Assembly (NCBI GenBank): GCA_051294375.1 | Contig: CM119271.1 | Span: 1,606,721 to 1,670,720 of the forward strand | Direction of reading: 5' to 3' | From: Paraspadella gotoi | Lineage: Eukaryota; Animalia; Chaetognatha | DNA: 64,000 bases | Shown: positions 357 to 46,626 of the stretch, piece after piece | How positions within the stretch are numbered: the stretch's first letter is position 1 | How the letters are laid out: each line of letters starts with the position of its first letter | Notes under the pieces: generated by a model | Databases searched by the model: none | What the model was told of the DNA's origin: nothing | Seen by the model: only the letters and a program-made list of their open reading frames with translations | Position numbers and translations under genes: made by a program

Positions 357-508
357 ATTATTATACTTATTATATTATATTACTTATAATTTATTAATTG
401 ATATATTTATCAAAGAACGAAACTAGATTCTATCAATGAATATTCAACAATCATACGCCTCCACATCTTCCCTTCACATCCAATCTCGCTTTTCCCCGTC
501 GATTCCAG

Positions 509-8587: not shown

Positions 8588-10240
8588 CTCAAATTGGTCG
8601 TCGACCCATCAAAAGTGCGGAGAAGCGAAGAAAAAAATTCGGCGCCAACTCTTAACTCGTTTTTCCACTGAGTTCCGAATCAAATCAAATCGATTTACTA
8701 TCTTTGATGAGGGGAAAAGTCGCGCTTATCCCTATAATTAACTGGGTCGGTCTGTCGGGACGACCCACTTATAAAATTTAATTATTTATTGCGTGTTAAC
8801 AAATTTCATGACAACTATACTTCAATTTAATTTTTAAATTTTATTATATCGATTAAATTTTCGTAACTTATGAAAAATTAAAAAAGAAAAGATATATATA
8901 TATATAAAATGAATTTATAGTTCTAAACGTTCTTAATTACCACATTAGCTATATTTAAAAGGGACCCGTCGAGACGTTGTTTGCTTTCGAAAACTTGTTT
9001 TATCTTTCATTAAAATAATAATAAAAGAGTTATCGAGATAAAAGAGAGATAAAGAAAGGGAAGGCAATTAATAAACTTTTTAAGAATCATACTTAATTAA
9101 GATGAAAAATTTGAGCGTTTTATAAGTCGATAATTTTCCGCGATTGAAAAATAACGAATTTCCAATCGAGATGCGCAATTTTTTTGAGCAAAACAAGAAT
9201 CGAAACGAGAAGATTGAGACAGAGAGGGGAGCGTAAGTTTATGACGATCGTGACGCGATGCAGACTAAATTAGAATTGAGAATTTATTGAAGATAAAATT
9301 GCCGTCTCATTAATAATGAGGGTCTGTAATCCGTGGATAGAGTTCATTTTGAGTCACAGGTTTAAAGAAGTTGTTCTTAATACTAGTTTTCAACAACAAT
9401 GAATCGAAAGAAATTACATAATGCCTAGTAGGCCTACTTAATACTTAAAATAATAAGTGTGTATAGTATACTGTATACTGTATACGTATACTGTATACGC
9501 TTACAAATCTTCATGTCGGGATATACCCTGCGGACCTGCGATTACTTACAAATGACAATAGAATCTAAATGCGGAGGAGGGGAAAACATGATGTATGTAA
9601 CATTCTTTACCGCATAATGAATAAGTCATATGCGTAAAAAAGTATCACTCTCATTAAAATGGACAAATAGAATAGTATGACATAAAGCGGCCTCAAAAAG
9701 GAGTGTCCGAATGCTACTCTTGATCGGCGAGCGGACGAAGATTCTTTTCCAAAGATGCTCCACAGTTTTTCTCTCTGCGAGATTATTAAGGTTCGATCCC
9801 GAAAAAATCCGGTTCAACGACAAAGATCTTCATACGACTGATTATGATTCCAAGTCTTTCATATTTGTCTCCCATTTCAAAGAACAAGACGCCGGAGATT
9901 ATAACGAGGGAGAGAAAAAAAAACAATTTTTTTATGTAACTAAATAAAAATTAAGGGGGAAATTGGGGTGATTTAATTTTTATTTAATTTTTTAAGGGGA
10001 AATGAACATTTTTTTTTGTTTAATCTTTCTTACTTAAATATATTATTTAATTTGGTTTTAAATTCAAAATAAAGTCTTTCATGAGTTTTAAACGAGTGTT
10101 CTATCAATTTGACTTTAATATTTTCATTAAAATAAATTATATAAACATAGTAAATAACTCTAAAGAAGTCTTTAATTCATATTTTTGGTCTTGTTTCATC
10201 TCGCAGTTAACTTCCGCGCTATTTTTTTTTAATGGAAAAA

Positions 10241-15790: not shown

Positions 15791-15843
<53 letters not shown>

Positions 15844-18800: not shown

Positions 18801-19283
18801 TTTAAAATTGCAAACTAAGTATATACATTGTACAATTTAGCTTTGTTTTAACTTGAATACTAAACTCTTTAAATATAGTTTAAATATTTCTTTTCCCCTC
18901 AGCCGTCATGGTGGGCCTAACCAATGAAGTTCCACAAACGCTCGAGGCGCTCTTGTCGCTCAAAGGATCCGATACTTACTCTTTTGTTCACGTGGACGAT
19001 TTCAATTACATACGGGCCTACGATCCAACGACCTACTCCGGATATGATTTTCAGACATTGGTAAAAGATTTTTAAAACATTATTAGTATTATACAAATTT
19101 TTTGATAGAGCCGCAATGTTCCATTTTCATTTACAATTAATATTAAAAAATACGTAAAAAGTCATGAGAAATTCAAAACTACATTTATTTCTCACTTGGC
19201 ATTTATATCAACGTTCTTGTCTTATTTTGATTTCAAATAATCAAATCAAAATAAGACAGGAATATTGCGAGAACACTTTTAAT

Positions 19284-19336
<53 letters not shown>

Positions 19337-22300: not shown

Positions 22301-24926
22301 AGACTCAAGCTCGGGGAGACTTATTGGTACTGGACCAGGGACGGCAACGAGGTCCCTGCGCTGAAGAAGTCTAAATTGGCCAATTTTCCCAATCAATTGT
22401 GGGAACCAATGGAGGATTCAACTTTTGATTCATACACTATTGGTTGGCTATCATTATATATCATAATCCATTTATATGAAAGCTTATTTTATATTATCTT
22501 TATTTCTATTAAATTTATATTTATTCGCATTTCCATTTTTGCCTGACCTTTTTTATTCTTCCCTTCCATAATTTGCTCCTTTATTGTTATTTATATCATT
22601 ATAATCTATCGCTATATTATATTTTATTGCCTTCACCCAACTTTCAAATAATTCTTTTCCTCCCCAACATTCACAGCGGCGTCCTCCCTTGCCATGATGG
22701 TCTACAACATCCGGGAGAATCGAGAGGGTGAGTTCAACATCATGAAGTTTCTCCAGCAGCGTCGTCCGGCGATGTTCGGTTGGCGGTCGACTCGGGGGAC
22801 ACTCCTCGCTCTCGATGCTCTGAGAAGATTCGCCAAACTAGAGTTTAAAAGAACCACCTTCGACATCACCGTCAGCATGAACATGTCTCTTTCACCACCA
22901 GTCAGGCACAGGTATATTGTCATGGGTAATGATTGTTAGAGTAAACAGAAAAGAGTAAACAGTCGATCGAGATGCTAGTCAAACAACATTCATGCTTTTG
23001 GCTTATAGATCCACACCAGTTCCCAAGTCGCAAGTTCATTAGCAAATTCATTATTTCTAAATGACCGTTATCACTCACAGTTTTGCCAATCTCCACAAAA
23101 AGAGCCTCCCTTCAATGCAACTGCTCGAAGTCCCTGACGCTTGGGGTCAGTTGGAGCTCCAGGCCAACGGGACGGGTTACGCCCTATTTGGCGTCCTCCA
23201 CGAGATGAGCGTCGAGCACGAGGATCAATACGCCGCGTGGAATCCGCCGCTCACGCAGCGACCGGATTTAGTTGGTTTGATTTATTGATATTGTTTTTAT
23301 TTTTGCTTTTATTGTTTTAGTTTTAGTTTACAAAAAAGATTTATCTCCACAAAATTTTCATATGTTTAATTTTTATCCATTGAGCGTCTAAATTTTGTGT
23401 ATCAAACTTTATTTTTTACAATCTAAATTTAAATATTATTATAATTTTTATTTAGGGACGGACCAGGATATCATGCCTTTTGGACTTAGATGGGAAATAA
23501 CTTATTCAGGACGAAATTTATCTCACATCCACTTTAAGGTAATAAGATAAAATTCAAGATAAAAAATGAACTGTGCATTCTACCTGTTTATGCTCTGCTA
23601 TCTGATAAATAAGATACGGTATACTTTAGGTGAAATTACGCTATCAAATGCTGGACGTCTCTCCTCGCAGTAACATGGCAGTTTTAAAGGTTAGTCTGCC
23701 TTTTAGGAGTTTATAACAATATAATTTTGAACCAATATGTATATGATTAATACGTATCAATATCATGGCTATCATCTTTTTCCTCAGGTGGAGCTGCCAT
23801 CTGGTTATAACTCGTGGGATCAATACTTTGTCAGTTACGGTTACGCAAGAAATCCTCCAAATTTGTTAAGAGCAAAATGTTCGCGCGGTTCCGCTTACTT
23901 CTTTTTCACGTGAGTTAGTAAAAATTAATTTTTGTTATATCTTACTTGTGACCTATTACTTAGCCTATCTAAATTTATGATTAATCATTACATTGGTTGT
24001 TCCAATGTTATAACATAGCATAATTAATAAAGCAAACTGTTCCTAGTATGTTATTGTCTTGTAAGAAGAATGCAGGCCTTAAGTGACCATAGCTCGTACA
24101 AAGTCTACAGCGAGATGGTTTATTTATTAAATGAATGATTAATCAATTATATTATATTGATTGTCACGATTTCATACACAAACATTGAACAAAATCATAA
24201 ACACCCTACTTTGACACGTGACACGTTCCAATAACTGCACTATGTAAATTTTTTGCAATTCCACTAATTTAAACAAAGATGTTTAAACTTTTTCGACCAG
24301 ACATTTGGATGATAAATGGACGGAGGTCAAATTCACAGTTCAACGATGGTTCCCCGTTGCCAACATGAGTCAATGGCACGCCATCACCGTTTACGATTAT
24401 TACGAACCCATGATGACGAGCATGAGGTTCTACTCGACGATAGGTACGAGTTATTTGGGTTAGGGATTATTTAGTCAGGGATTAGGATTAAGGATTAAGA
24501 TTTAGGGTTAGGGATTAGATTTGTGTTTGGTATAAAGGTTCGAGATTAGGGTTAAGAATTGCGTTAATATTTAGAGGTGAAAGTTAAATATTTGGGTCAA
24601 AATTCGGAAATAGATTTGTATTGAATATTTGGGTTAGAATTAATTTCAGGGATTAGGAACAGAAATCGGGCGGTTTTGGAAAATAGTTCCCTTAACTCAT
24701 TACCAACTTAACTCTATAAAACCAATAACACATAAAACTCTCCAACAATATATCAGGATTAAAAAATCTGGACATTTGCAAAGTGTGCGGCAGTTTCCAG
24801 TGTCCCTACTGCTTCGACTACAACGCGGCGCCATCGAGCTTTCGATCGTCGGCGTCGTTTTTCGGCGTCATCGGCGTCATCGTCGCTTTGGTCGTCGTGA
24901 TCGAAAAGAGATTCGAGACATTTTGA
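10241..24926 (+). CDS. Mcr: Macroglobulin complement-related protein (Mcr/TEP6-type, alpha-2-macroglobulin/TEP family), ~30+ exons
   Basis: Signal-peptide exon 10241-10388. FYVIMAPKI|VRPD...TRNGMEIAGDSK|VFYRGIPDHLLMSVP (11538-12261) matches the Mcr N-terminal pattern. LDLa module CDGVLDCTDGSDE (~17490-17590); ISLVGDVMG followed by degenerate thioester site HSGEA (~20058-20153); FGWRSTRGTLLALDAL; RSNMAVLK|VELPSGY; RWFPVANMS...VYDYYEP; last exon 24757-24926 ICKVCGSFQCPYC plus a hydrophobic tail. Confidence 0.9.
13272..14185 (+). repeat. ~255-bp direct duplication (13272-13527 / 13928-14182) of an Mcr exon 3' end plus donor and intron, flanking a ~400-bp insert
   Basis: Two near-identical copies of agggagagatcaacatgacggcc...gaaatttaaatgcta. 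Confidence 0.95.
14438..14657. repeat. Inverted repeat (~75-bp arms), MITE-like hairpin in an Mcr intron
   Basis: agttaatagtttgatttggtctttac...ttatttctggaggtaaca mirrors tgttaccttcagaaataa...gtaaagaccaaatcaaactattaact. Confidence 0.85.
15753..16305. repeat. (AG)n / (AAAG)n purine tract within an Mcr intron
   Basis: Low-complexity tract that starts right after the donor at ~15749. Confidence 0.95.
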
Positions 24927-26418
24927 AAGGAGGAAGAGAAGAGGAGGAGGAAGAGGAGAAAGATGAGATGAAATCTAAATTTTATTTATTATTGATATTT
25001 TTGCTTGCCGTAAAAAATTAGAAGAAAAAAATAACAAATTTTATTTTGAGGTTTCATAATTCAATATTTTATTTCATATTTTATTTCATATTTTATTTTA
25101 TTATTTGGAAGACAATGCTATTGTCTTTTAATTCTCTTAATCACGGATTTTTATAGTATTTTAATAATACTACTAGTAATCATATAGCTTCATGCCCTTG
25201 ATTATGCCTATCACATTTCCTTCAATAAGAGCTAAAAAAAAAATTGGTTTATCGATTTCTTATGACAAGCAAAAACTAATAACAAATGAAATTGAAACTA
25301 CAATTGTTTCCAAACTTATCACTCCTAAAAACTATATTAGAAATGATGATCCTAAGCGTTCTATAACGTCTTAATTTGTTTGTTTTTCTTGTTTATGTTC
25401 CGTGCTGCTGCTGTTATCTTATCTCACCAATCAAAAGCCATCTTCATTTTGAATTCTCACAATAAAAAGCCATCTTCATTTTGGATTCTCACCAATCAAA
25501 AACCATCTTCATTTTGGATTCTCAATGGAGCATAAAAGATATTATATCTATGCATAGTTTATATTCAATAATGTGCATTGTGCAATGTAGTCTTGTTAAT
25601 TTAAAAATTACCTAGATCACAATAATAAGCGGTTATGTACAATGAAGAAGATTCCTTGGGGGGTTTCTCAGTTTCAGATGAGAACATTGTTTGAGCAGTG
25701 CTTAATCTCGACTTAATATTAACTCAATCCATATATCAAAAGATAAAAATAGAATAATAACTTTATTAAGTATTCAATATCCAATAATCATTGAAAAACA
25801 TACATCAGAATGACAGAGCCAAAATGCAGCAGCAGCAGTAGAGCCGATACGCAGCAACAGTAGCAGTAGAACCGAGATGCAGCAACAGACGAGACGCAGC
25901 AACAGCTCAAAGCTACATAAAAGTTTAAATTAATTAACATATTCAAGTAATTTTACAAATATCATTTAATACCTGATGGTCTCAGAGGAATCTCCCAAAA
26001 ATTAAGAATTTACTCTCCTTTTATATACAAGGACACAATTATTACAACCAATGAGAGAATAGTTCACATTTTGAGAATAAAATCAAAACATCTACTAGTT
26101 ATTATTAACCAATAAGAGACCAGATATTCAAATTCAAGGTATAAAATTCAACCAATTAGAGACTTTAAACAGAACTATTGGAGTCATTCAATTAAACTTT
26201 AAATTCAGATATTTGAACCATTAAAAAATAAAAGGTCAGGGCTCAATTCAGATAAAAATCTTTATAAACTCTTTAACATACAATGTATATAAAAAATTTA
26301 GCCTTTTAACAAAATTAGAATTTTTTTAAAAACTTTTTTAACAAATTTAACTTGTACTAATTTTTTATTAATTTTAAAAAGGCGGCTAACATTCTATTAT
26401 GCTTATTTAGATATTTTT

Positions 26419-26840: not shown

Positions 26841-29800
26841 TTATCCCCAGTAGAAAATTTCGCCGACGCCGCTGCCCCCGCCGCTGCCGACGACGCCGTC
26901 CTGATTAACGCCGGAAGTTTAAGACAGATCATTTAAACAAAGTTATTATCAAAACAATAATGTAAAAGTTTTGTTCATGGCATGACTAAAAAACAAGTTT
27001 GAGCAAACAATGTCGGATCTGCCCACGATCATTAATTATTAATTAATTAGTACAAACTATATAAACTAAAATAATAATTTAATTAACAAATTAATTGATT
27101 GATTGATTAAATAATTAATTAATTTATAAATAAATTGATTATTGAATAATTAATTAATAGATAACTAAATAAATTTATTGATTGAATAATTTATTGATTA
27201 ATTATTTATTAATTAATTGACTAATTGATTAATTAACTGATTAATTATTTGCTTATTTAATTCCATCAAAACTTGATTTCCAGCTTAATCACACACTTTC
27301 CTACCCACATACAAAATTTCAAATCAATCGCCCCATCCATTCATGAATAATTGAAGTTCAAATAGTGAAATTTATTTTTTTGTTTTTTCCATTTAAACTC
27401 ATTTCCACTCGCAAGATTTTATCGAAACTTCATATCCAGCTCAATCACACACTTCCCTATCCACACACAAAATTTTATTCCAATCCATTCATCCAATCAC
27501 AAGCCGTCGGACCGACGGACGGACATTGGTTTTTTGTGCATAATTTATCATAATTCGATGTTCTGACATGATATAAGTGAATGCCCGACAAGATTGACCG
27601 ACGGACCGACAAAGTGAATTATAGAGTCGGGATCTGCTTATAAGCATATCCGACTAAAAACTGATCTCGAAAATGAAAAATCAACTCAACTAAAAGCTTG
27701 ATATAAAAATCGGTACTTCAATATTTATTTAGCCCCTAATATCGTCTAGTGATTGCCACTACCCAGAACCCACCCGCAACCCCCCCCCCTCATATTAGAC
27801 TGGAACTCACCCAGTCTTCGTCGTCGTCCTCATAGTCGTCGTTGGGAACGTCAGACGGAAAGTACAAGCCTGAAAATGAATGGGATTGATGAATCAGTCA
27901 GTCTATTCGTTAATTTTTTAATCAATTTAATCAATTTAATCAATTAAATAAATATAATCAATTTAATCAATTTAATCAATTAAATAAATATAATCAATTT
28001 AATCAATTTAATCATTTAATCAATTAAATCAATCTAATCAATTTAATCAATTTAATCATTTAATCAATTAAATCAATCTAATCAATTAAATAATCATTTT
28101 CCGGTCTCACTTAAATCTCGCTCATCTCCAAAGCCCTCGTACGCGTCTTTCTTGCTCTTCGTAATGTTTACAAGAATGTAATCTTTTCAATACACTCACT
28201 TACCTCAGTCAATATCTTTCCCGACTTTCCTCAGCCGCAAAACCTCACCTGTGTCTCGGCCGGGGATTTGGCAAATGTATCTGAGTGGATTGTTGCAGGA
28301 AAAATCGTTGATGCCTCCGTGATAGACGTCGACGCATCTCTCTTTGCCGAGATAGTTGTTGGGCTCGTTTGGGCCCCACCTGGATTTAGAAATTGATCGA
28401 TCAATCAATCTATCAACCAATCAATTGGGCAGTCAATCAGTTATAGGCAATAAATAATTAAATCGATGAAACCAATCAAAAAAATCATTGAAATTAAAAT
28501 GAAGCAAATAAATTCATCAATCAATCATTCAAACTAATAGTCATTCTTTTTTTTTTCAGTATAGTTTAAGCAATCATTAATCAATTATTAACAATCAATC
28601 AATAATTACTTCGAAAGAAATAGAAACAAGCCGGTCAATCAAACGATGAAATGAAATTATTTTTAAAAACAGACCCCGATCCGTGTTTTCTTTCGCTCGA
28701 CTCCAGTCCCTCACCAATCTGAATCCTCGTACAGGGTCGACTCGTCGATCCACTGGAAACCCTCGTCGGTTTTAAAGGCGCCCACGAAAAAGCCTTCGTT
28801 CCAGCGAAGGCGTGAAGGACGGGGAAGCATCATCCCGAGCTCTCTCTGTGTTTTGAGTTGTACGGGTAGGGGGAAGGGGGAAGGAAGGGGGGGGGTTGTT
28901 GGTGTCGGGAACTGTTGTCGGGCATTGCAATACGTTTACCCCGCCTATAAGCATGTCACCTTTAGTCGTGACACGGTGCCTCTTTGAGTATTACCATCAG
29001 CTCATGACCATTAGGTACGGGGATCGATCCCCTTCGGTACATACCCTGCGGGAAGCGTGAGGACGGCCGTCAACCGCCTTGGGGGCGTGGAAAACCCTCA
29101 AGCCTGGTTCCAAGCCCATGATCCGTTTCATGGCTGCTAGAGGTGGTTGAAGAAGTTACGGAAAGCTTTCTTCAGCCCATTTAGCGCCTTTTTCACAGAA
29201 CAAGTTTATCTTTGGTCTCTCTTTTCATCACGCACCAGTTTTGTTCCGAATTAACTATTAACGTGATTGATTAAATTAATCCACAACCTAATCCATAACC
29301 CTGATCTTTAACCTAAACTAACTTAATTTCAAATTTAATATGAAATCGGGCTCTTTGCGAAAATAAAGCCTAAATTTTTTTTCCCTATCAGAAATAAAAC
29401 AGATAATAAACATTACTCTTCTTGCAATTTTAAAAGAAATACATTGTTTTTAAATTGGCTTTATAATTAGGATAGAATTACAATATGGAGCTTTCCCAAC
29501 GCCATGCCATACCATGCCTCAAGCGGTCGCTACAAAATCGATTTCGAAGTCAAATTGGATTTATGATTTATTTGTTTGGTCTAATCTTCGAAATCCATTA
29601 ACCTCAAAATTATTTTTAAGCTTCTGGCAGCGCGTCTCAGAGGGATAACTGCAATATGCAAATAAGATTAAGAGCCCTCAGTTTCAATTTGGTTTTTTTC
29701 CCCAATAACGAAACGAATTCGAGGATTGATCGTTGAATTAAACAGAGCAAACAACCCTCTTTTCGGAAAGCGCCCTAATTCAACTAGAATTCAGAAATAA

Positions 29801-30247
29801 GTTTGTCTTTAGGTTTAATAATTCGGTTAAAAGCTAGGGAGAGGAAGTAGATTAGGAATTAGGAATCAGAGTTAGGAATTAGTTTAAGGATTAGGGTTCA
29901 AGGTTAAAAAATATGGTAAGGGATTAGTGATTAGGATTAAGGATTAAATTAGGGTTAGGGATTGGAAAAAGATTCGGTTAAAATGAAATGGGCCACTCTC
30001 GGAAAATAGTGCCAAAACCTGAATAAAGTCGTAATCTTTCTGATCGCTGATGACGGCCAAACTTCCTCCCTCGAGGCGACAACTGTCTCGTGCGATGGAG
30101 AAGACAACTCGATCCTGAAATATAAATATAAGGATTACATAATAGTATTAGTATTACGTAATAAAATTACTCACCAGTTTGAACCCGTAACATTTTCCTT
30201 GTGGACCATGAACGTAGTTCGCTGGACAATTGGCTGAGTGGAGAAAT

Positions 30248-30300
<53 letters not shown>

Positions 30301-31939
30301 ACGATAACTTAATAAATTACCCCCCAAATTTTTTTTATTTAATGTATACAACTTTATACTTTATATGCAAATTTTTCTTACCATCAACTGGTTCTTGGAA
30401 CGGTCGCTGGCAAATAAAGCGAAGTCGATAATTACAAGGAAAATCGTTGAGGCCCCCGAAAAAGACGTCGACGCAATCCTCTTGGACGAGGTAGTTGTTG
30501 GGCTCGCCCTCTCCCCACCTGATTGATTGATAGATTGAATGATCTATTCACGGGTTTATTGATAGTAGGGTGGATGACGAAAAATATCACAGGGTTTCGC
30601 TACCAAGCCAGAACGACTACACTATAATAGCTTAGTAAGGTGGATGATGGAAAATATCACAGGGCCTCGCCCCACACCATTCAGAACCGAGGTCGATTCT
30701 CCCTTCTCCAGAATTCCAACGAAATTCTCCCTCTTCTTTGAGATCCGTGGCGCCAACGAAGAAAGCCTGCCTCCAGTCGGTCAGACGAGGTACGACGGGA
30801 AGTTGGGATAGTTGATTCTTGAGGGGAATTTAAGGTGCGGGTGGAGAGAGGGTAGTTTATTGGCTAATTGATTGGTGAATTAAGTTGAATGGAGAATCGA
30901 TTGGTTGATTGATTTTTGGCAGTTGATATTTTTAATTGAAGCAGAGAGAGAAAAAAAGATGGAACAGTGAGGCGTGATTACTACTCCTTGGAGTTTTATT
31001 GTTTCGAAGGAGATTGATTGGTTAAATGATTGCTTGAATGATTGATTAAATGATTGGTTGATTTATTTATAGATTGTATGGTTGGTTGATTGTTTCACTG
31101 TTGAATTATTGATTAATTAATTGATCGATTTATTGATTGGAAAATTGATATGTTGATGTTCGATAGGAGAGAATAATCGCTCATTAGTATTTCTAAAATT
31201 ATTAATAATTCTGTTCCTTTTGTTATTACTCAAAGACCAAACTTATTTGAATTAGGTTAAATTCATGAATCTCAAGTTCTAAACTGAATTCGCCGGCATT
31301 CATCTTCCCCGGCCGCACCTGAATAAAGTCGTAGGTCTCTCGATCGTGCATCTCGGCGAGGATCGCGTCGTGCGACTCGCAAGTCTTTTCCGCCGACGCG
31401 AAAGTTTCTCTGTCCTTGAGATCAGAATGAAATATTTTAGTTAAAAGATTTTTTCGATAATTAATCAATTCATAATTAATTATCCTTTCACTTTCGTTGT
31501 GTTTGAGATTAGCGAAAAATTGTTTGTTTTTATTTCGACAACGATGATAAAAGATTTAATAATTCATATATACTTGCATAATGTACATTCATTGAATCAG
31601 GTTGATTAATTTGTTAATTGATTAAAATAAAGATTATATTTGCATTTACGTGAAATAGACGGAAGCATTGATTGTGAGGCCCACGAACGAAGCCATTTTT
31701 GCAATCCGAAGTTGACGGTTCTGCAAATTTGCCAACAAAAAAAAAATGTTTTGATAAAATATTTTTTATCAAAATAGTTAATTATCATATAAGTTCCTGT
31801 AATTACATATAATTTATTGTAAAATTATTTGTTTTGTTTACTTTTGCTTTATTTTATTTTGTTTATTTGTTTTCATTACTTAGTCTTTGTTTTCATTTTA
31901 GTTTCGTCACCTTCGGTCGTCGTCGTCGTCGTTGTCGTC

Positions 31940-31970
<31 letters not shown>

Positions 31971-32372
31971 TCTTCNNNNNNNNNNNNGTCGTCGTCGTCG
32001 TCGTCGTTTTCTCCGTCGCGGGTCGCGACGCGTTAAACTCGCAGATGTAGGAACATCTGTAGTTGCATCTGTGATCGTGCCATTTGTGGTCGTAGGAGGA
32101 CTTGTGGCCAATGAAGAGACATTTCTCCCATCCGCCGTCCGGTTGACCCGGGAACCAGTTGACGAAGCCTGTATTGAGAGATGTATGGCCGGGTCGTCAG
32201 AGTCATAATCTTCATCATCATTATCATTGTCGTCTTCATAATCATCGTCATCATCATCATAAAAATTATTCACTAAAAGTAAAATTATTATTTATTTATT
32301 TATTTATTTATTTATCGTCAGGATCAATCGTAATGGATGTCTTAATCAGAATCATCATTGTTATTTATCAGC

Positions 32373-32414
<42 letters not shown>

Positions 32415-34954
32415 CTTTCTCACCTTCTTCCGCCAGCGTCTTACTCCTTCCCGCCCAATGATATTTCCTGTCGCTTCCTTCCCGTCCGCTCGTCCAAAAA
32501 TCCCACTCTGAGTCTTAAAATTAACCAAAACATTAAATTTGGCCTTATTTTCTCAAAATGACCTATTTCACGGTATATTTGGTTTTAAGATTAATTTAAT
32601 AGTTTGCATTAGCATTATAGATTAAGTTAGTGATTAGGGTTAGGGATTAGTATCAGGATTATAGACTATAGTTTAAGTTTAGTATGAAAATACAATGCAT
32701 CGCCTATCTTTTTTTCTTTTCCAAATCTAATAACCATTCATTTTTAGTGACTGAAGCATAATTTTTAAAAATTAATATTTTCTTTATTCTGATTCGTTTT
32801 GATTCATGATCGAATCATGTAATTGAAGAGAGGTTTCCAGGGTTTTTAAAAATACTAAAAATTATAAAATATTAATTATCCAAAACTCAAGTTGTACTAA
32901 TTTAACTGGGTAACGCCTCAAACGCGGAACCTAAAAGGCATAAAAGGTTAAAATACATTTTATACCAACGCAGAGAATAGATTATCAAGTAGCTTGCCTC
33001 TCTTGGCTTCTCCGTCTTTTCTTCTGATTGACCAATCAGAGATGAGGCTTCCCTCAGGAAACCGACGGCACAGAAACGAGAAAGGGAACTGGATCAATCT
33101 TCAACTTACCTTTTAAAAACTAACATCAAACTCCTTATGGACTATTTGTTATATTGTTTATTGCTTGCCTTTTTCTCTGCCTAATCTACATATTTTGTAT
33201 GCTAATTATCATCATCCCAACGTGTTCTTATGTCAATAAAACTCCTCTTATTTCTTACGTACTTCCTTCGTTGATAAACAATAGGGTTAAAGATTAGCTT
33301 ATAGATTTGGTAACAGATTAAGAATAAATTTAAAATTTAGAAACAGAAATAGGGCGCATTTAGAAAAGGGCGCATTAAATTAAAAAGTATTCAACTCTAT
33401 TACTCTATTACGCAAAACACAACAATATTAGTATTTAAAATACTTTTTACCTCCTTTTTCTGCCAAGAGTTGCTCGATGAATTCTTGTTCGTCCGCTGAT
33501 TCAATGCTTACGAGTTCCGCGCCTGAGTGAATGAAATTAAAGAAATTAACGTATGGATGAATGTATGAATAAATGGATGGAATGAATAAATGAACGGAAT
33601 GAATGAATTAAATTAATGAATAAATACAATGATTAAGTGATAAATAAATACATAAAAAAATCATTATCTAACAAACCATGTGTGGATGGAATGAATGGAT
33701 GTATGAAAGAATAAATGATTAAAATTATGATAGGATGAATAAATGAATGAAATGATTATGTGATGAAGAAGTAGACAGGAAAAAAATGACTACTAATAAC
33801 CTAAAAAAAAAAAAAAATAAAACAACAAAAATAAAAATCACAACAAAAACAACAACAACACAACAACATCAGCAACACCAAAAACAAAAACATCAGCATG
33901 AACAACCATCGAGCAGTCGGCCGCAAATCTCGTTGGCAAACCCCTGTCCGTGAAAATGATCCGTTTGGGGCGATTCGGGGACATAGTAGCAGGAGGATGA
34001 CCCCGCGGGGCCGGGAGACCAGCCCGGTGGGCAGCCTTGAAAAAAGGAGATGGGGGAAGAGGGTTGATTAGTTGTGGGAATTGACATCCGGGATTGACAT
34101 CCGGGTTTGTGGTCGATCAATGTACGGTGTGTCAATGTTTAATGTGAAGGATTCTCATAAAGCTTTATGAATATTACTCGCATATAGCATATAAGTATTT
34201 TGTGGAGCAAATTAAAACACATGGTGGAAGTATAACACTGGGTTTAGCCTATATTTAAATGGACCTAATTAGGGGGGGTTTAGAGTTAAGGGTGGTTTAA
34301 GGGAGGTTTAGGGTTAGCGGTAGTTATGGTTAAGGGGCTTTAGGGTTAGGTTAATTAGGTAATAATCTTTTAATTTTTTTTAAAAAATAAGTATTTTTAA
34401 GTAGTTTTTCAAAAAACGCCAAAACCCTGGCCGGCGAAAGTAAGATTTTTACTTTTAAATGATTGAAATTATAATTTTTATTGTTGTTATTACTATTTTT
34501 ATTGTTATTATTATTATTATTATTAAAATTATTTAAAATCACCTGGTCTATCGTCATCGTCAGTTCCGCTTACGAGTTCCTTTATCTTCGTGAGTAATCC
34601 CTTGAAAAAACTCCCCACGCCGGCTGAGATTTGAATTGGTTGGAATGTTTATAATAAACTGCAGTTTTAAAATTAACATCAGTTAAACTTGTAAATAAAC
34701 AAGTCATCCTAGCAATTGGGACAATTACGACTGAATCAGAATAAAAGTTTAAATTGATTAAATTGCATAAATAACTTTTATAATTGTGTTAATTGATAAA
34801 ATATGGCTGCCAATGAAAGAAAAAAATTGCCTGTAATTAAAATTAATTGCAGGTAACTACCTTGATTAACCGCCGGAGTTTCGTCTCTTTTCCTGAAGGC
34901 GGAACACAGAGCGAAAAACAAAATGGCCGACGAACAAAAGGTCAACAATTTCAT
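26841..34954 (-). CDS. Secreted multi-domain C-type lectin A: signal peptide, RKR, amphipathic peptide, CTLD1 (QPD/WHD), poly-Thr linker, CTLD2 (EPN), CTLD3 (EPN), acidic Ser-Gly tail
   Basis: Exons about 34954-34861, 34623-34543, 34036-33908, 33522-33451, 32507-32424, 32168-31912, 31720-31650, 31414-31319, 30817-30678, 30518-30382, 30233-30175, 30114-30019, 28845-28715, 28379-28249, 27869-27811, 26900-26841 join in phase. Motifs: CPPGW..CY, LVSIESADEQEFI, FWTSG, NWFPGQPD..WHD..C..ICE, FFVGATDLKEEGEFRW, GEPNN..C..LND..C..FICQ. The tail exons are less certain. Confidence 0.88.
27495..27660 (+). mobile_element. Helitron/Helentron-associated (DINE-1/HINE-like) non-autonomous element end
   Basis: (GAC/GGAC)-rich stretch, then hairpin GTCGGGAT-ctgcttataagcat-ATCCCGAC followed by TAAAAA. 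Related inverted segment at ~54395-54640; similar GACA/CCGA-type remnants at ~4222-4298 and 37563-37637. Confidence 0.55.
27920..28095. repeat. (AATCAATTT)n minisatellite, intronic
   Basis: Tandem 9-mers are directly visible. Confidence 0.9.
28914..29198 (+). mobile_element. tRNA-derived SINE-like family 2 (CAT in anticodon-loop position), in a lectin A intron
   Basis: tRNA-like segment 28970-29040 (..CT CAT GA..GGATCGATCCC) followed by a GC-rich body. Homologous inverted copy at 46347-46626. Confidence 0.65.
29757..30012. mobile_element. Representative of a small TIR-like family filled with degenerate TTAGGG/TTAAGG hexamers
   Basis: Ends resemble gcactattttccgaaagcgcccattt in inverted orientation, with (ttagg-like)n inside. 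Related pieces at ~1555-1750, 2170-2290, 13345-13500, 24455-24690, 29280-29365, 32560-32680, 33280-33375, 35745-35895 and 42890-43060. Confidence 0.6.
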
Positions 34955-36258: not shown

Positions 36259-38866
36259 CTAGTTCCAGCGACAATCGCCTCTCTCGCCCTGTAAATTGTA
36301 AATTACAATGTTTTGAAAAGTAAGAGATCCTACAGAAAACTGTTTTTTTTTCGTAAACTACCATGAGAGATAGTTAGTCTAGCCTGGCCTTAGAAGGTTA
36401 TTGTCTTGTAAGAAGGATGGATGTCTTAACCCACAATAGCGGCCAAAGATGGAGCTGGTTTATTAAATTAAAGTTTTCTATATTGGTTGTACCAACTTCA
36501 TCACATCACTTTCAAGTCAGACTCACACGTTTTCTCACTTGGTAATCATCGTCCTTCCCGTTCGCCTCTCTTTTCACTGAAAATAAAAAAAATAAATCTC
36601 TATAATAATTAGTAAATATTAAGCTAATTTAACTAATATTTACTTAATATGTAGTAAATAAATCTCAACAAACTCTTTTCATTCTTGCCCGTTTGACGCG
36701 AGGCGATTTGACAAATGTATCGTCTCTCGTCGGAGCAAGGAACGTCCTCCAGTCCGCCCACGTAGAGCGATACGCAAGATTCGTTCTTGTTGTAATTGTT
36801 TGGCTCGTGGGGTCCCCACCTGGCAGAGGGGGAAAAAGATAGACCGATTCATTCATCTATATAAACAATCATTCAAATTAACATTTATTATTGTACGTAG
36901 ATATGAATAAATGTAAAAAAAATATAAATAAAAAAATTCGTAAAATGAAATAAAGACGAACAATCAATGAATAATCAATTTAAATGTAAAAATAGATTAA
37001 TGAGCAAAAAGATAAAATTAACATTACACTAATTAGTAATATCAAATAAACAAATATAAATCAATCATTCAAACAGTCATTCAATTATTAATCGGTCAAT
37101 TCTACTGAAGATAAATAAATAAATCAAATCAATCACTCACTCCCTCAATCGCTAGGTCCCCCTCACCAAAGCGACATCTCTCGCAACGCCCTCCCGCTCA
37201 ACCATCGGAAATCTTCGCCATCATCTCTGACCGCTCCGACGAAGAATGAATCTCGCCAATTGCGTTTTAGGGGAGGGGGGCGGGCAGCTTCGAGCATTTT
37301 CTGGGGGAGGCGGGGGAAAAGAGAGAAAAAGAGATGATGAAAATAAAATATATATAGAAAAAAGTGAGAAAGGAAGGTAGGAAAATGAAAATATAAGAAA
37401 AAAAAGAGAGAAAAAAACGAGTTGAATGAAAAAATGAAGGAAAAGAAAAAAATAAAAATTAAGGAGAAAGAAAAAAACTAAGAAGGGAAAAAGAAATGAA
37501 TAAGTTTTAAAAATAAAAATGAGGCAGAAAATTGAAATTGTTATTTTTTTTTCAAACAACATTTTTTAGTCACTTTTTGGTCGGTTGGTCGGTCGGTCCA
37601 TCGCTCCGTCGGTATGTCTGTTTGTCGGTCTGTCCCATTTGCCTATAGTTAATGATTGCTCATTTGTTAAGACAGAAAAAACCACAAATCTAAGTGTCTG
37701 CTAGCGCATGTCAAGTCATATAGCGTCAGATCATGTCACGAGAAATACTCGTCACTGCGGCGCAACACATTTGAATTACCGTTCTTGTTTTATTGACATT
37801 AAAACGTTTGCGAGCCTTCATCAGCGCAAAATAGAATAATAAATAATAAAATAGAATAATAAATAATAAAATAGAATAATAAATAATAATAAAACACAAC
37901 AGTTGCGAAAAATAAAATAAAAAAGGCCGAGAAAATCAGACAGAAAGGAGAAAGGATATAAAAAAAATATGAAAGGAAAGGACAAAGATATCAAGGCAAA
38001 TCAAGACAAAGATATCAAGGCAAATCGACCTACGTGAAAATAGCAAAAGACCTTGTCGTCCGGAATGACGGCGATTTCGGCTTCCAAGAAACTGCAACGT
38101 CCGAGGCTGGAGAAAAAGTCGGTCCGCTCCTTGCAAGTAGAAAGTAGAAATCGTTGCGTAATTTTCAATAGTTTAGCCGAATCTTTACCGTATTAAAATT
38201 TCAAGATTATTTGTTTCACTATCTTTAGTTTTTTTTAGACTTTAAAATATTATTTTTTTAAAAATCCAATTTCATTTCTATTTTTATTATCCTTATGCTT
38301 ACATATTTAAATTTAATATTATTTCATATTTGTTTTATCATTTTATATATATATTTTTTTATATATTTTGTATTAATTTATTCGTATATATTTTTTAACC
38401 CCCGCAATCTTTGTTAATTTATTTCAAAGCCAGTGTCAGGGTTGTTAAAGAAGACCAGTATTCTCACCTCCATGAAGGCGTAACAGTTTCCATTGGGACC
38501 TTTAACGAAAGCACGAGGACATGTTACTGGAACACAAACAAAACATTCGACGCAATAAAACGGCTAATTATACTTCCTAAGACACGTAATATATAGACAA
38601 TAGTTTTCCTTGAAATTTGGCAACCTTAGATAGTTTATTTCTTCTTCGCTATATTGTTCTGTTTTATTTATTTTTTTATTGCAACGAATCACGTTTAGAG
38701 ACTGAGGTTCAGTAATAATACGTACAATTACAAGTATAATTATATATGTTCGTCATTAATCAATTGTTATTTCACCACTTTTTCTTTTCGTCTCCCCCTT
38801 TTCCTTCCCGCGCTGCATCGAAGCGACGACAATGATGAGGGCCACGAAAAATATCAGTAATCTCAT
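36259..38866 (-). CDS. Secreted single-CTLD C-type lectin B (EPN motif)
   Basis: Exons 38866-38776 (MRLLIFFVALIIVVAS..TKRKS), 38526-38468 (CPRAFVKGPNGNCY), 38129-38034, 37300-37167 (WRDSFFVGA..FRW), 36819-~36689 (WGPHEPNN..C..C..YICQ), 36576-36539, 36288-36259. The donor of exon 5 is ambiguous (GC donor or a later GT). Confidence 0.85.
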
Positions 38867-40681: not shown

Positions 40682-43600
40682 CTACCAATCTCCGCTTCCG
40701 CTTCCGCTTTCGCTTCCTCCCTTGAACAAAGATTGTGGTTTAATTAATACATAATTAATTAATTACATCATTAATTACATCACACATTATGACATCATGT
40801 ATATCATGTCGTTTATTTTTCACAGTAGAGGGCCGCTCACCGCACCTTTATGTAGTAACTTCGATTATTATCAGTTACCGTAGCAGGAAAAACCCATCAC
40901 AATGTCACAATATGACACATCAAGTAATTTCTGTTACCTCTTCTGAGTCCTCGTCGTCGACGCTCGTATCTCCGCTAAAATCCTAAATGAAATTAGGTCA
41001 TTATCAGTGATAATATCAGTGATAATATCACTATTATATCTCATAAAAAAATGTTATGATAAACGGAAAAATCCCTGTTAATGTTATCTCAAATGTTAAA
41101 TCCCAACAGAGTCATATCACAATCATCTGATTACACACTCAAGTTGCAATATATATGTATAATATTGTATATTCGTAATAATATCATATCAAAATCCTGA
41201 CATAACATATCATAACAAAGTCAAGTCGTAATCTCGACTAATCATAACATAACACAGTCATGCCACAATCACATCAAATATTATCATAATACAGTTATGT
41301 CAGGATCATATCAAATTAAACTATCACAGTAATATCACAGTCATATAAAAATATTTTTACCTCCTCGATTTCGTCGTCGCCGCTTTCACCCTGACAAAGA
41401 TTATTGGGCATTGGGTAGGGATTAATAACATAATAACATTTAAGTAATAATATTATAATAATATAACTATTATATATAATAATATTATTATATCTCTTTT
41501 ATTTATAACAGCTTGAATACAAAATGTACGGAATGACTCATTCCATTTTTTAAAGATCGTTATAGTTTTTAAATGCTTTTATCAAATCTTATCTTATCAC
41601 ATCTTATTCTTTTTCCCCAATTCTCACTTCTTCAATTTCCTCATCCACGTTCGAATCTCCGCTGCCGCTTTCGCCCTCATAAATCGAATAGAATTAAGAT
41701 TAGTTTATAATGAAGAGACAGTAATTATTGTTAAATGTTAGTGACAGAACCGTTCAATATATGCAGTCCCTGAGCTTTGGATCAGGCTGTAACACCAAGT
41801 TATAGGCAGGTTAAGCGCCCCGACCCTCTTAACTGCGAGGCGACCACCGGGACTTTTGGATTGGGAAGAGAATGACTTGCCTCCGGCACCAATGGCCGCT
41901 GATGAACGGTTGGTGGATTTTAGTCCACCATAATAACATAACGGGGACAAGATAGCTTATTTATTAAATGAATGGATAATTGTTATATTGGTTGTACCAA
42001 TTTCATAACATTTTACATCACTCTGTACCTGTCACACTCGTTTTAGTCACACATTAACAACACACGACATCATTTGTTCAATTGTTCAATTGTTCAATTG
42101 TTCATATCTCTTTTTTATCACAGATGTTTCACCTCCTCTTTCTCGTCTTCGTCGTCGACGCTGCCGCCGCCGCTGCCGCTGCCGCTGTCGTCGTCATCGC
42201 CGGCACTTTCTGTACTTTCTGATTTATAAATGAAATGTAAAAAAAACAAATGAACTTTTCGGAAATTAAGAATAAAATAACAGCCCATTTACATTTAGTC
42301 TTTCTCAGTCCGAACATTTCCTTCTGTTACTTAACGTGTTTCTGTTTTATAATCCATATGTCAGTCTGGGTCCCCTTCTCTGTCTGTCACTATGGGTCTT
42401 TAAACCGTATCGCTACAGATGGATCTATGATTGATTGAATAATTGATTGGTTCGTGTGCTTACTTGTTTTGTCCGTGAATTGGCAGATGTGTCGCAAATT
42501 GCTTCTGCAGTCGACGGTGCCGAGTCCCCCGATGAAGACTGCCACGCAATCTTCTCGTCCGGGCTTCCCGCCGAACCACCTCGAATCAAGCAGAAGGATG
42601 AATCAAGCAGTAAACGAATCAATGAATGGGAGATGTCGTTTGCGAACGAATTTAAAGAGAGGAAAAAATAATGAATGGAACTAATGAAAGTATTAAACTA
42701 ATAATGAGTTAAAGATTAATCAAGTTTAGAACAAAATTTAACAATAGCATAGAAAAGCGGTGGAGAAATTCCGAACATTAAGCGGGTAGTACCGAGTAGA
42801 ATTAATCATTCAAATCGATCAAATCGCGACATCGAATCAATTAGTTCGAAAGGACATTTAACCAAACGAAATATACGAATTTGATTAGGTTAGTTTTAAG
42901 AATAAATGGTTTAGGATTTGCTCAGCGAATAAGATTTAGGATTAGGGGATAGAGGTTAGGAATTAGATTATAAATTAAGATTAGGTTACGGATTTAGTAA
43001 GGGATTAGGATTGAATATCAAGCCTTAAATCAAATTGGGGAATTAAATAACAGAAATGGGCACGGTTCCCAAGACAGCCCGGAAAAGAAAATAGAAATAA
43101 CCCATTTTTGAAATACAAAAAAAATGAAAAATATGTTTTTACTACATCGTAGTGAAGTCAAAAAATTCTGATCCAGGCAAGTTTTTTTAAAAAGTTTTGT
43201 TATATTTTTTTATAAAAAAAAAATGAGAAATTAATCAACGACTTTTACATTCTTTGTCAAATTTAACTTAACTATAAATCATTATCTACTGAAAGTGAGC
43301 TTTAATTTGAACCCACTTTTATTATAAAATAGTAAAAATTTGTTAATTACTATGTGAAAGACTTATTTATTTCTTATTTAATAAAAAAACTATAGAAATG
43401 TAACATACTATTGCTTAGCTTCAAAATCAACCTAATTTTAAATTTTTCTTCAACAAATAACTACTATTAAATGCTATGTATAAAATTGTTAAATTGTATA
43501 AAAAATTAGAACAAAACTTTAAAATTCAATTAAAAAAAAACCTGCTTTGATTAAAATTTACTACGACGTAGTAAAAACATATTTTTCATTTTTTTTTGTG

Positions 43601-45481
43601 TTTCAAAAATGGGTTATTTCTATTTTCTTTTATGGGGTGTCTAGGGAACCGTGTGGGGCGAATTTAGAAAATAGCGACCCATTAAAAATGATTCCTTACC
43701 AATTCGAGGATTCGTGAAGCGACTTTCCATCGAGCCAGTCGAATCCGGCGCCGCCGACTCGGACCGCGCCGACGAAGAAGGCGTCGCGCCAGTTCTTGCG
43801 AAACGGCGCCGGGGAGACCTTATTCAGCTTTTTCTGAATATTTTCAGTATTAATTTTAATAATGAATTTAGTTTCAAATGATGATGGTTTAAGGACTGAT
43901 AAACTCATCGAATGTTTTTTAAAATATAATTTTAAAAATGATTTTATAATAATCTTATCAAATGATTTTACAATCGAATTAAATTGTTTTATAAACTAAT
44001 CAATTTTTTTATAATATAATTAAATGAGTTTATAGTCCAATCCAATGATTTTATATTATAATCGAATGATTTGATAATCTACCAAATGATTTTAAAATCT
44101 AATTAAATGATTTTGCAATCTTACCAAATGAATTTATAATCAAATCAAATGATTAAATAATTTGTTTGAATAATTTTATAATCTAATCAAATATTTTTAC
44201 GATCGAATCGCACCTGAACCAATTTGAAGACCATTTTGTCGTGGATGACGATCAATTGTCCACCCAAAAGTCGACAATAGTTGTTTGCGCTGTCAAAGTC
44301 CATCCTTTCCTGAATTGAGAGAAGGAAAGTAGGGGAAAGGAAAGGTAAGTCAAGTGGAGGCACTTGGAGAGGTAACAAGAAATAAAACTAAATTTATTTT
44401 TATTCTTGATCATTACATTATCAATTGAATGTACCTCGTCGAAAAAGTAGCAATTTTTGCCGAAATGGACGTACGGTGGCTGACACCAAGCTGAAAGGAA
44501 AGCATTACTCTTTGTATTTAATGTCATAACTCTTTTAATATTTAAATCTAATTTGGAGAATCAAAAGAAAAAAGTGTAATCGGTAAATATTGTGTGTGCG
44601 ATGTTCTTAACCAAAACTGCAATTAGTCAAGATTTATTTATAATAAAAAGTCATTAAATCCGTAATGATGTAAGCTAAGATGTATGGTTTAAGCAAGCAT
44701 GTCCCATCCATTGACACCCTGCAGGGCCTGCAATGTACCAACCTATGTTCGAATAACCTCTGGCTTTCAAGCTTCTCTTTTTGCGAATCACGTCTCCTCC
44801 TCCTGCGATATTAATTAATTCGGCGAATAAGATTAATAATAGTGAAGCTTATAATCGTCATCTTAGTCTATAAAGGGCATTAATAAATTGCAAATATATT
44901 GATACGTTGATAAAGTAAAAGAAGTAATTTTTGAAATTTTCATACTTACTGTAAGATTTCTTTCCTCTCCTTCCACTTTCAAATTCTCTCTTTCCACTTT
45001 CAAATTCTCTCTTTCCACTTTCCATCTCTCTTTTTCCACTTTCCATTTCCCTCTTGCCGCTTATCATTGCTCTCTTTCCACTTTCCATTTCCCTTTTTCC
45101 ACTTTCGATTATCCTGTTTCCACTTTCAATATTCCTTTTTCCACTTTCCAACTCTCTCTTCCCGCTTTCTATCTTCCTTTTTCCACTTTCTATCTCCCTT
45201 TTCCCGCTTTCAATTTCCCTTTTCCCACTTTCCAACTCTCTCTTTCCACTTTCCAACTCCCTCTTTCCACTCTCCAACTCCCTCTTTCCACTCTCCAACT
45301 CCCTCTTTCCACTCTCCAACTCTCTCTTTCCACTCTCCAACTCCCTCTTTCCACTCTCCAACTCTCTCTTTCCACTCTCCAACTCCCTCTTTCCACTTTC
45401 AACTTTCCACTTGGCTTCAGCCGCGAGATCGCTGGCGGCAAAAATCAAAATGGCCGCCGCGAAAAACGATGGAAATTTCAT
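40682..45481 (-). CDS. Secreted chimeric protein C (~405 aa): signal peptide, 21x (x-x-E-S-G-K-R) prohormone-like repeats, RKKR, degenerate CTLD, acidic Ser-Gly-rich tail
   Basis: 11 phase-consistent exons: 45481-44950, 44802-44758, 44490-44435, 44309-44214, 43833-43700, 42579-42464, 42209-42133, 41675-41628, 41390-41361, 40982-40938, 40720-40682 (1218 nt). CTLD motifs: CQPPYVHFGKNCY, ANNYC..GGQL, WRDAFFVGA..FDWLDG, C..C..HICQ. Confidence 0.85.
41711..41899 (-). mobile_element. tRNA-derived SINE-like family 1, second copy (B-box deleted)
   Basis: Colinear with 6713-6913 but lacking the gctagaaccc segment. Confidence 0.75.
43061..43653. mobile_element. MITE with ~95-bp TIRs, CACGG...CCGTG termini and 4-bp TSD (TGGG); Chapaev (CMC)-like
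   Basis: Left arm cacggttccc..tttttactacatcgtagt mirrors right arm actacgacgtagtaaaaa..gggaaccgtg, with TGGG on both sides. Removing the element restores a motif seen intact at ~33345-33372. Confidence 0.85.
44966..45406 (-). repeat. Coding 21-bp minisatellite, 21 units (consensus GAGTTGGARAGTGGAAAGAGR = ELESGKR)
   Basis: 441 bp = 21 x 21 nt with no indels, counted directly. Confidence 0.97.
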
Positions 45482-46346
45482 CTTTGGTTTTATTAATTTA
45501 TCAATTTTTTTCCCCGAAATGTCGCTGATGAGAGTTTGTTGAGGCGGAGAGACGTTAAATGAAATTAATCTCGATTTGAGACAAAAGATCATTCGACAAT
45601 TAGATCGTCAAACGTGAGACACGAAAAATAATGAAGGCTCTTCTCTACATGTTGAGTAGAAAAAATAAACCTGGTCCATTCTCTTTGTATATTTTAAAAT
45701 ACTTTGTTATTATTTTACAAAGAAATACATTGAGGCGACTACAACATATATAAAAAATAAAAATATTTAAACTTTTAAGTATTTTTTTAAAATCAGTATA
45801 CCAGTTTTATCATAGTATATCCCAGTGACCATTTTGGGTATAATATAATAAAAACTTGTATATCTATGAATTAATATTTGTCACTTATAGAATCGAATAT
45901 TTTTTTGAATCAAAACATTTATTTATTTTAATTATTTTACAATGGTATTATCATATTACTTTATAATCTTTATAATAATTATAATCCTCTTGCAGACGTC
46001 GAAGTTTTTCGTGATTACCCTGTAACCAAAAAAAAAGTCATAAATTAATTCGGTTAACGAAAGAAAGTAGATTTTCCCAGTTTTTCGGTTTTTCATGAGG
46101 GTCAATGGATCCGGAACGACGACGACAACAACGACAACGAAAGGTCACGTGACGAGAAAGAGATTGCGATCGATTGCAGTTGATTGCAATCGATCGATTA
46201 AATGAAAAACTAATATTGATTATAATTTAATCACCAAATTCCATTATTCGCTTCAAATTTGCTTAATTGCGTAATTTCGTTTCCTCACGCCTCTTAATAC
46301 GTCACTGGATTAATTGAATTATAATATAATCGAAATCAGTTGAGAT

Positions 46347-46626
46347 TGTGGATAAGGCGTTAAGTGGGCTGAAGTTGAACAACCGTAACTATAACCCCCA
46401 CTAACATTAAGGAACGGGTCCTGGGCTTGGAACCAGGCTTGAGGGTTTGCCACGCCCCGAAGGCGGCTTACGGCCGTCCTCACGCTTCCCGCAGGGTAGG
46501 TACCGGGTTGGGATTGAACCCGGTACCTAGTGGTCATGAGCTGATGGCTTTACTCAATGAGTCACCGGGTCACAACTTAAAGTGTCATGCTTATAGGCGT
46601 GGTGAACCTAAGCAATGCCCGACGAC
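46347..46626 (-). mobile_element. tRNA-derived SINE-like family 2, second copy
   Basis: The minus strand has A-box-like TGACTCATTGAG and B-box GGTTCAATCCC, and is colinear with 28914-29198. Confidence 0.65.

Follow-up and report, generated by a model that had tools for sequence, protein, structure and literature searches.

Does a gene that encodes a lectin-like domain also encode a series of short amidated peptides, or do its repeats stay whole? This question is raised by a gene of the chaetognath Paraspadella gotoi, located on the minus strand (45481 to 40682) of a 64,000-nt stretch of contig CM119271.1 (assembly GCA_051294375.1, positions 1,606,721 to 1,670,720), here called the window, whose numbering is used throughout. 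Its 11 exons translate into 413 residues with, in order, a signal-like N-terminus, 21 heptads (residues 26–172), a basic linker with the motif RKKR (residues 184–187), a 130-residue C-type lectin-like domain (CTLD) and a tail of 86 residues. A preliminary description proposed that this is a prohormone-like polyprotein fused to a lectin. We found that the gene is real and spliced as one transcript. The variation among the repeat units tilts the case toward cleavage into peptides, without settling it between cleavage and a coiled coil.

Gene structure and transcript support

Our recount of the translation agreed with the preliminary description: the signal-like N-terminus is followed by 21 heptads, of which 19 end in GKR, one in GNR and one in GRR. 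The tetrapeptides preceding these endings are ELES (nine copies), EMES (three), EIES (two), EFES (two) and one each of KVES, KIES, NIES, IIES and AMIS. The motif RKKR was found to be the sole R-x-[KR]-R of the whole protein, and the translation contains both CTLD and acidic Ser-Gly tail.

The transcript data represent a single public run (X1) from one study, presumed to be RNA, in which introns are skipped at GT-AG ends; this run was used for spliced joints only and not for expression level. The repeat exon and the CTLD exons do belong together, since the final 52 nt of exon 1 are followed by exons 2–6 in one 573-nt contig; the preliminary description had named a lack of such joining as what would overturn it. 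The same contig confirmed the proposed joint 44950/44802, with 52 contig letters on the exon-1 side. The motif RKKR lies on a separate exon, as had been described, but the length of 45 nt had to be revised: since the contig uses a donor at 44743, this exon is 60 nt long (44802–44743) and the next joint is 44743/44490 rather than 44758/44490. The corrected end of exon 2 adds five residues to the protein.

The 573-nt contig extends 60 letters past exon 6, and the 30 printed letters match exon 7. Other contig joints connect exons 8–11, and the contig sequence runs on past exon 11 to 40296, with AATAAA at 40267. Nine of the ten introns are supported in total (eight by the contig joints listed and one by the 60-letter loose end). 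The intron between exons 7 and 8 (42132–41676) was not seen among the contig joints listed, and the repeat letters 42132–42202 were skipped in the matching. Part of the array (44993–45281) was matched by a contig of the run with no differences, and no contig among those listed spans the signal peptide, all the repeats and the remainder. We also observed an unspliced contig of low depth (8.4) over 41361–41656, covering the exon 8–9 intron, which could be a retained intron, pre-mRNA or DNA.

Variation among the repeat units

The 21 GKR endings are one motif that was tandemly copied and not 21 separate events. At the DNA level, 17 distinct units were found among the 21. Ser, Gly and the final Arg are invariant across all units and yet show synonymous changes, the hydrophobic position takes Leu, Ile, Met, Phe or Val, and the Lys position changes to Arg, which remains dibasic, or once to Asn. 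The repeats present the features of multi-copy amidated precursors, namely units bounded by G-K/R-R and conserved on their C-terminal side, with G[KR]R in 20 of the 21 units. The proportion of nonsynonymous differences among units is much lower than that of synonymous differences (respectively, pN = 0.13 and pS = 0.71 overall; 0.024 and 0.72 for S-G-K-R), which indicates purifying selection beyond chance. In addition, all 21 units have T as the middle base of the hydrophobic codon, with variation at the first and third bases. No swap of R to K or of E to D was observed in the 21 units, although R to K requires a single transition.

We then considered the minimum number of amino-acid-changing events. 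Ten of these 12 events fall in positions 1–3 and two in S-G-K-R (binomial P = 0.006). When the same events are placed in a coiled-coil register, 10 fall at a, d, e and g, and two at the exposed positions b, c and f (P = 0.04). The unchanged Gly and final Arg have a probability of about 0.03 for 12 events, and of 0.06–0.08 when double changes are counted once. Per-position entropy confirmed that the hydrophobic position is the most variable and that S, G and R are fixed.

The same pattern was found in two sea-urchin precursors similar to thyrotropin-releasing hormone (TRH) precursors (P0246 and P0252; 16 units each), where position 2 varies and GKR is fixed. The reverse was observed in 156 mostly bacterial LxxG heptad runs: conservation is highest at their hydrophobic and Gly positions, KR or RR stands at the matching place in 2.5% of the heptads, and that last position is conserved like the hydrophobic one in only 8 of the 156 runs. 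Convertase cleavage is favored because the variation among copies resembles the sea-urchin precursors and is opposite to that of the LxxG runs. Finally, a protein kinase without signal peptide (P0122, residues ~565–760) contains 28 ESQSGKR-type heptads, of which 13 keep GKR, compared with G[KR]R in 20 of 21 units of the present array, and where G to D and R to Q changes occur. This kinase constitutes a useful negative control for calls of GKR repeats.

Origin of the array

The gene is the first member of a cluster of tandem C-type lectin genes, all on one strand. Its first 45 coding bases match the signal exon of neighboring gene C at 32 of 45 nt, and none of 2000 codon shuffles was as good; gene B matches less well, with 57 of 2000 shuffles as good. 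Because the signal exon is homologous to that of a neighboring lectin, the repeats likely grew inside a lectin gene and no prohormone was captured. The simplest reading of these sequences is that the array expanded in place within the lectin's first exon. The preliminary description was thus right that repeats and lectin-like domain are joined, but 'fused' is not the appropriate word, since exon 1 is the lectin family's own signal exon. Both neighbors present short basic segments after the signal peptide, with RKR in gene C, and their lectins end in Asp-rich stretches. No further G[KR]R array was found in any frame of the window. Based on hydropathy, the protein presents a predicted signal peptide and no membrane anchor: the most hydrophobic 11-mer covers residues 6–16, and there is no second hydrophobic stretch of membrane length.

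Proposed processing

That the precursor is cut after K-R and amidated into tetrapeptides by the convertase route is, in our estimate, close to an even chance but short of it. The preliminary description had favored such peptides, and this stands as the best single reading through the repeat variation, but the rival of a helical heptad had been overlooked. We infer all the steps that follow splicing from general rules on the enzymes. The protein would pass through regulated secretory granules, in a nerve or gland cell equipped with PC1/3- or PC2-type enzymes, a carboxypeptidase and PAM. Prohormone convertases, which favor a hydrophobic residue at the second place past the cut, would cleave after each K-R, followed by trimming and by amidation at Gly. 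The products would be about 19 short x-hydrophobic-E-S-amide peptides, mainly ELES-, EMES-, EIES- and EFES-amide. The predicted cut at RKKR would free a chain of 226 residues with the lectin-like domain and the acidic Ser-Gly tail. The tail may carry glycosaminoglycan or bind calcium and help to pack a granule or a matrix, and the peptides would act as a signal co-released with the lectin-like chain. The outcome is expected to depend in part on the cell type, as a cell with furin only would leave the repeat chain whole.

We propose more tentatively, and with clear doubt about the whole, that this gene is a de novo multi-copy precursor of the neuropeptide type, derived from a lineage-specific C-type lectin by expansion of a 21-nt unit in the signal exon. 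It would yield ~19 TRH-sized amides of the xLES type and a lectin-derived carrier or matrix chain without sugar binding, and would be convergent on the TRH layout.

Look-alikes of the repeats

Homologues were searched with single exons against longer proteins, a design of low sensitivity for lectin relatives. Exon 1 yielded 98 matches among 7999 scored candidates, nearly all of them with FtsX- or MMPL-type Pfam domains and LxxG heptad runs. A HMMER search over 1.84 billion representatives yielded 5989 matches, of which the best 150 were inspected. The look-alikes were of three kinds, alike by period and composition, and the LxxG runs of FtsX-like and MMPL proteins were by far the commonest. 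The sea-urchin TRH-like precursor P0246 (E = 2e-25) was found near the bottom of these best 150 of 5989. Beta-roll repeats formed the third kind.

No CTLD was detected in the 247 proteins collected (phmmer with the CTLD of this gene; best E = 2.6), and exon 5 yielded no match against longer proteins among 15 candidates. The ESM Atlas gave no usable match to exon 1, and only rows below 0.9 when the signal peptide was removed. Degenerate DNA repeat patterns had no match in metagenome and prokaryote genome contigs, and NCBIfam returned sub-threshold coiled-coil families only. A profile of exon 5 found four metagenome loci, which we rejected as chance, with the short motif alone matching. The architecture had been described as unfamiliar, and indeed no relative with the same layout was found in the sequence and literature searches made.

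Alternative explanations

Several observations weigh against cleavage into peptides. The deficit of changes for GKR alone is not significant (P = 0.09), and the invariant Ser is part of the signal. All counts derive from ~12 events, in a young array made of non-independent copies, and G[KR]R occurs in 7.8% of random open heptads of the same base composition (1.1% when followed by x-hydrophobic). The low entropy of the LxxG runs at the hydrophobic and Gly positions is in part forced by the pattern used to select them, which demanded a hydrophobic residue in first position and Gly in no less than half of the units. Three units would be poor or non-amidating sites (one GNR, and Ile or Lys right after the cut). 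The top matches of the array are helical heptad runs, including the apparently bacterial-type P0031 with exact ELESGKR units, and AlphaFold predicted one helix of 150 residues (pLDDT 93; 92–93 across five models).

The last two points are those expected of an uncleaved helical or coiled-coil stalk (heptad positions: a hydrophobic, d Gly, e Lys, g Glu) that would oligomerize or extend the lectin-like head. The stalk would measure about 22 nm and could be removed by a cut at RKKR. The period is exactly seven, and heptads in which Gly follows the hydrophobic residue at a distance of three are a known helical type. The look-alikes are nearly all LxxG runs of equal helix propensity (mean helix penalty of 0.44 for the array and 0.435 ± 0.05 for the runs), and an ESQSGKR control array, which has no hydrophobic residue, was predicted to be unfolded (pLDDT 50). 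Moreover, coiled-coil necks are common ahead of CTLDs in C-type lectins. We nevertheless consider the stalk rather unlikely, although it is a serious contender. A coiled-coil neck presents hydrophobic a and d positions, a conserved core and a variable surface, whereas here d is Gly and the variation is reversed: the coiled-coil core and flanks took most of the events, and position a accepts five different residues while the exposed Ser and Arg are fixed. Oligomerization would also be undone by a furin site that separates the stalk from the head. The fold itself was predicted from a single sequence without alignment (pTM 0.48), and a Foldseek search of the helix model against the PDB yielded no match.

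The repeats could also remain intact as a mostly disordered, charge-patterned polyampholyte (43 K/R and 36 D/E in the array) that forms, with the acidic tail, a cohesive, granule-matrix or mineral-matrix protein similar to flatworm ap1. The repeats have no Arg at P4 and, by the usual rule for furin, cleavage in a constitutive cell is therefore expected at RKKR only. The acidic role looks family-wide because the neighboring lectins also end in Asp-rich stretches. The available text on ap1 of Macrostomum describes GRK-rich repeats paired with a C-type lectin domain (PMC8621496, PMC6745481), but the ap1 regions are strongly cationic and are accompanied by vWD, C8, TIL and EGF domains that are absent here. 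A role based on charge alone predicts the R to K and E to D swaps that the units lack and leaves the conserved hydrophobic position unexplained, and we regard this explanation as unlikely. Another scenario is a nearly neutral minisatellite expansion in a disposable propeptide, removed at RKKR and degraded. The array is absent from both neighbors, whose basic propieces are short, purine-rich units often yield GKR by chance, and a similar heptad array exists in the unrelated kinase P0122. The low pN/pS, overall and for S-G-K-R, and the fixed T of the hydrophobic codon between varying first and third bases argue against neutrality and make this scenario quite improbable. Finally, the array scores 41.5 bits (cut-off 30) with the Pfam family LbR_Ice_bind (PF21300), and PDB entries 7O23 and 3ULT are among its top three PDB sequence matches, which could suggest a left-handed beta-roll like those of grass ice-binding protein or autotransporter adhesin heads. 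The alignment with 7O23 consists of little but periodic S-G matches. We reject the beta-roll, which we find hardly credible, because Glu falls opposite small Ser/Ala positions; these positions face the tight core of a beta-roll. Despite a score above the cut-off, the small or Asn/Val inward residues and the flat Thr/Ser face of ice-binding rolls are lacking, there is no Thr/Ser ladder, and AlphaFold gives no beta structure.

The origins of multi-copy peptide precursors are hard to study, as their ancestors are usually unrecognizable. Here, the states before and after the expansion can be compared directly because sister genes without repeats adjoin the gene and share its signal exon. If the peptides are made, the gene would be a peptide-plus-lectin precursor of which the searches made found no description, and a testable example of how a new peptide emerges from a lectin propeptide; a young signal would have been caught arising. 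If they are not made, the gene would be a clear warning for the sequence-based prediction of neuropeptides, as a signal peptide followed by GKR repeats could then also mark a helical stalk.

Lectin-like domain and acidic tail

The domain that had been called a lectin has the sequence pattern of a CTLD, but it is not predicted to bind sugar. Its six Cys align with those of three neighboring CTLDs at 34–42% identity (42% with the CTLD of gene B), the exon phases are common to the neighbors, and exon 5 is 35–52% identical to the matching exons of the three CTLDs. The neighboring CTLDs match Pfam Lectin_C and PDB lectins, whereas the single exons of this gene match weakly: exon 4 matches Lectin_C below the cut-off (E = 0.037), and the best PDB match of exon 6 is mannose-binding protein A (E = 0.32), compared with MBP-C for the neighbor's exon (E = 3.7e-5).

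Site 2 lacks EPN, its loop is shortened, LGT stands in place of ND, and only the Glu before Cys is kept. In contrast, the neighbors keep EPN with ND or ED, and one domain has QPD and WHD. Following the site-2 scheme of mannose-binding protein, which we take to give the residue roles, four of the five calcium ligand positions are lost. Calcium-dependent sugar binding is therefore unlikely for this lectin-like domain, which lacks the combination of EPN or QPD with WND-type ligands. The CTLD is mildly basic (isoelectric point of 8.8) and the tail strongly acidic (4.05), with 36 D/E, 3 K/R and 10 SG in 86 residues.

Features of the window

The features of the gene and of its neighbors are given in Table 1. 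In gene C/D, which probably has three CTLDs, the parts would be a domain with QPD/WHD, a Thr-rich linker, two domains with EPN and an Asp-rich end; an assembly gap (31976–31987) interrupts the linker, and the link between C and D is putative. Gene C also presents an 81-nt exon (34543–34623, minus strand) between RKR and the first CTLD, which is Lys/Leu/Phe-rich, resembles an amphipathic helix by eye and is followed by four Asp. In this lectin family, the exon may provide a further type of propiece that could be released.

Table 1. Positions of the features of the lectin-array gene and of the neighboring lectin genes in the window
Feature	Positions	Strand	Basis
Signal-peptide-like N-terminus (residues 1–23), start of exon 1	45413..45481	-	Hydropathy and DNA homology to gene C
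21 tandem 21-nt units, x-hydrophobic-E-S-G-K-R heptads (residues 26–172)	44966..45406	-	Sequence
Exon 1, 532 nt: signal and repeats, then the first part of the basic linker	44950..45481	-	Open frame and contig joint 44950/44802
Exon 2, 60 nt: basic linker, RKKR at 44774–44785	44743..44802	-	Contig joints on both sides
Exon 3: N-terminal part of CTLD, long-form disulfide cysteines	44435..44490	-	Contig joints and translation
Exon 4: CTLD	44214..44309	-	Contig joints; weak Pfam Lectin_C match
Exon 5: CTLD core	43700..43833	-	Contig joints; identity to neighbors
Exon 6: C-terminal part of CTLD	42464..42579	-	EPN replaced and shortened, xND to LGT, pre-Cys Glu kept
Exon 7: start of acidic Ser-Gly tail	42133..42218	-	First bases match loose end of 573-nt contig
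Exon 8: acidic tail	41628..41675	-	Donor joint in contig; acceptor predicted from sequence only
Exon 9: acidic tail	41361..41390	-	Contig joints
Exon 10: acidic tail	40938..40982	-	Contig joints
Exon 11: coding part and stop codon	40682..40720	-	Contig joint
Neighbor gene B: signal, short basic stretch and a single EPN-containing CTLD, repeats absent	36539..38866	-	Sequence-only model
Neighbor gene C/D: signal followed by RKR and a propiece, three probable CTLDs, acidic end, repeats absent	27811..34954	-	Sequence-only models

High-copy repeat elements were observed in or near the lectin genes (41704–42008, 46286–46500 and ~29000–29150). Contig depth reaches thousands to tens of thousands at 41704–42008 and 46286–46500, and the elements at 46286–46500 and ~29000–29150 share sequence by eye. 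Elsewhere in the window, a gene on the plus strand (~10200–24950) appears to encode a thioester-protein/macroglobulin-like product that carries a class A module of the LDL-receptor type and has a hydrophobic stretch at its C-terminus (sub-threshold Pfam matches), presumably similar to Mcr-type proteins. A cytochrome P450 gene (~450–4100, plus strand) has one exon 44% identical to fish CYP2B-like proteins. The whole window shows no CpG depletion (observed/expected ratio of 1.12, inflated by TCG microsatellites).

Comparison with known systems

The closest layout is that of echinoderm TRH-type precursors, including P0246 of Lytechinus, P0252 of Strongylocentrotus and ArTRHP (PMC4772807), which likewise present a signal peptide followed by tandem tetrapeptide-GKR heptads. 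Echinoderm TRH-type peptides are defined in PMC4772807 as tetrapeptide amides with an N-terminal Gln (pyroGlu), followed at positions 2 and 3 by aromatic or cyclic residues. Here, the peptides begin with Glu and not Gln (16/21 and 0/21, respectively), and the aromatic or Pro residues of positions 2 and 3 are absent except in the two EFES (aromatic residues in 2/21 at position 2 and 0/21 at position 3). TRH-type genes have two exons and no other domain according to the available text of PMC11890989, whereas this gene has 11 exons, a CTLD and a lectin-derived signal exon. The Pfam TRH family matches P0246 weakly (E = 0.0015) and does not match exon 1. Among the neighbors of echinoderm TRH genes (TBC1D22B, CADPS1, COG5, GAT-2 and CYP2J6), a CYP2-like P450, a common type of gene, lies ~40 kb away; the others were not seen among 47 scanned frames, a hand-picked subset of the window. 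By the features tested, the sequence has a TRH-like layout but is not a TRH.

Bacterial FtsX-like permeases and MMPL proteins contain LxxG runs that likewise have a period of seven, a hydrophobic residue three places before Gly, an E/K-rich composition and a similar helix propensity. Judged by context these runs are no homologues, and they differ in that KR is seldom found and the exposed positions change, whereas S and R stay constant in this gene. The eosinophil pro-major basic protein (PRG2) and serglycin offer a further likeness, with a calcium-independent basic CTLD and an acidic Ser-Gly segment of the glycosaminoglycan type in a granule precursor; in our gene, the acidic part is C-terminal and a repeat array is added. 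Flatworm Mlig-ap1 is a secreted protein with Gly/Arg/Lys repeats and a C-type lectin domain in one chain (PMC8621496, PMC6745481). Compared to this gene, ap1 proteins (Mlig-ap1, and Mile-ap1 and ap3) are far larger, contain vWD, C8, TIL and EGF domains and have cationic rather than nearly balanced repeats, and a Gly-Lys-Arg amidation pattern is not reported for them in the available parts of these two articles.

Precursors that combine peptides with a folded domain are known as a kind. We found neither this peptide nor a CTLD with an attached GKR array described in the searchable literature, outside of which lie most subscription papers and bioRxiv supplements. In the supplements of PMC8557429, PMC6188537 and PMC3890597 (part of the files), ESGKR was found only as isolated matches (2, 1 and 1, respectively). 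Multi-copy precursors restricted to certain species have been described, according to the available text of PMC6188537. Vasotocin-neurophysin and NG-peptide precursors carry one or several small N-terminal peptides with a folded, Cys-containing domain behind them (PMC8557429). The gene of P. gotoi shares this layout of peptide then folded domain, with a CTLD instead of neurophysin, 21 copies of the putative peptide and an acidic tail.

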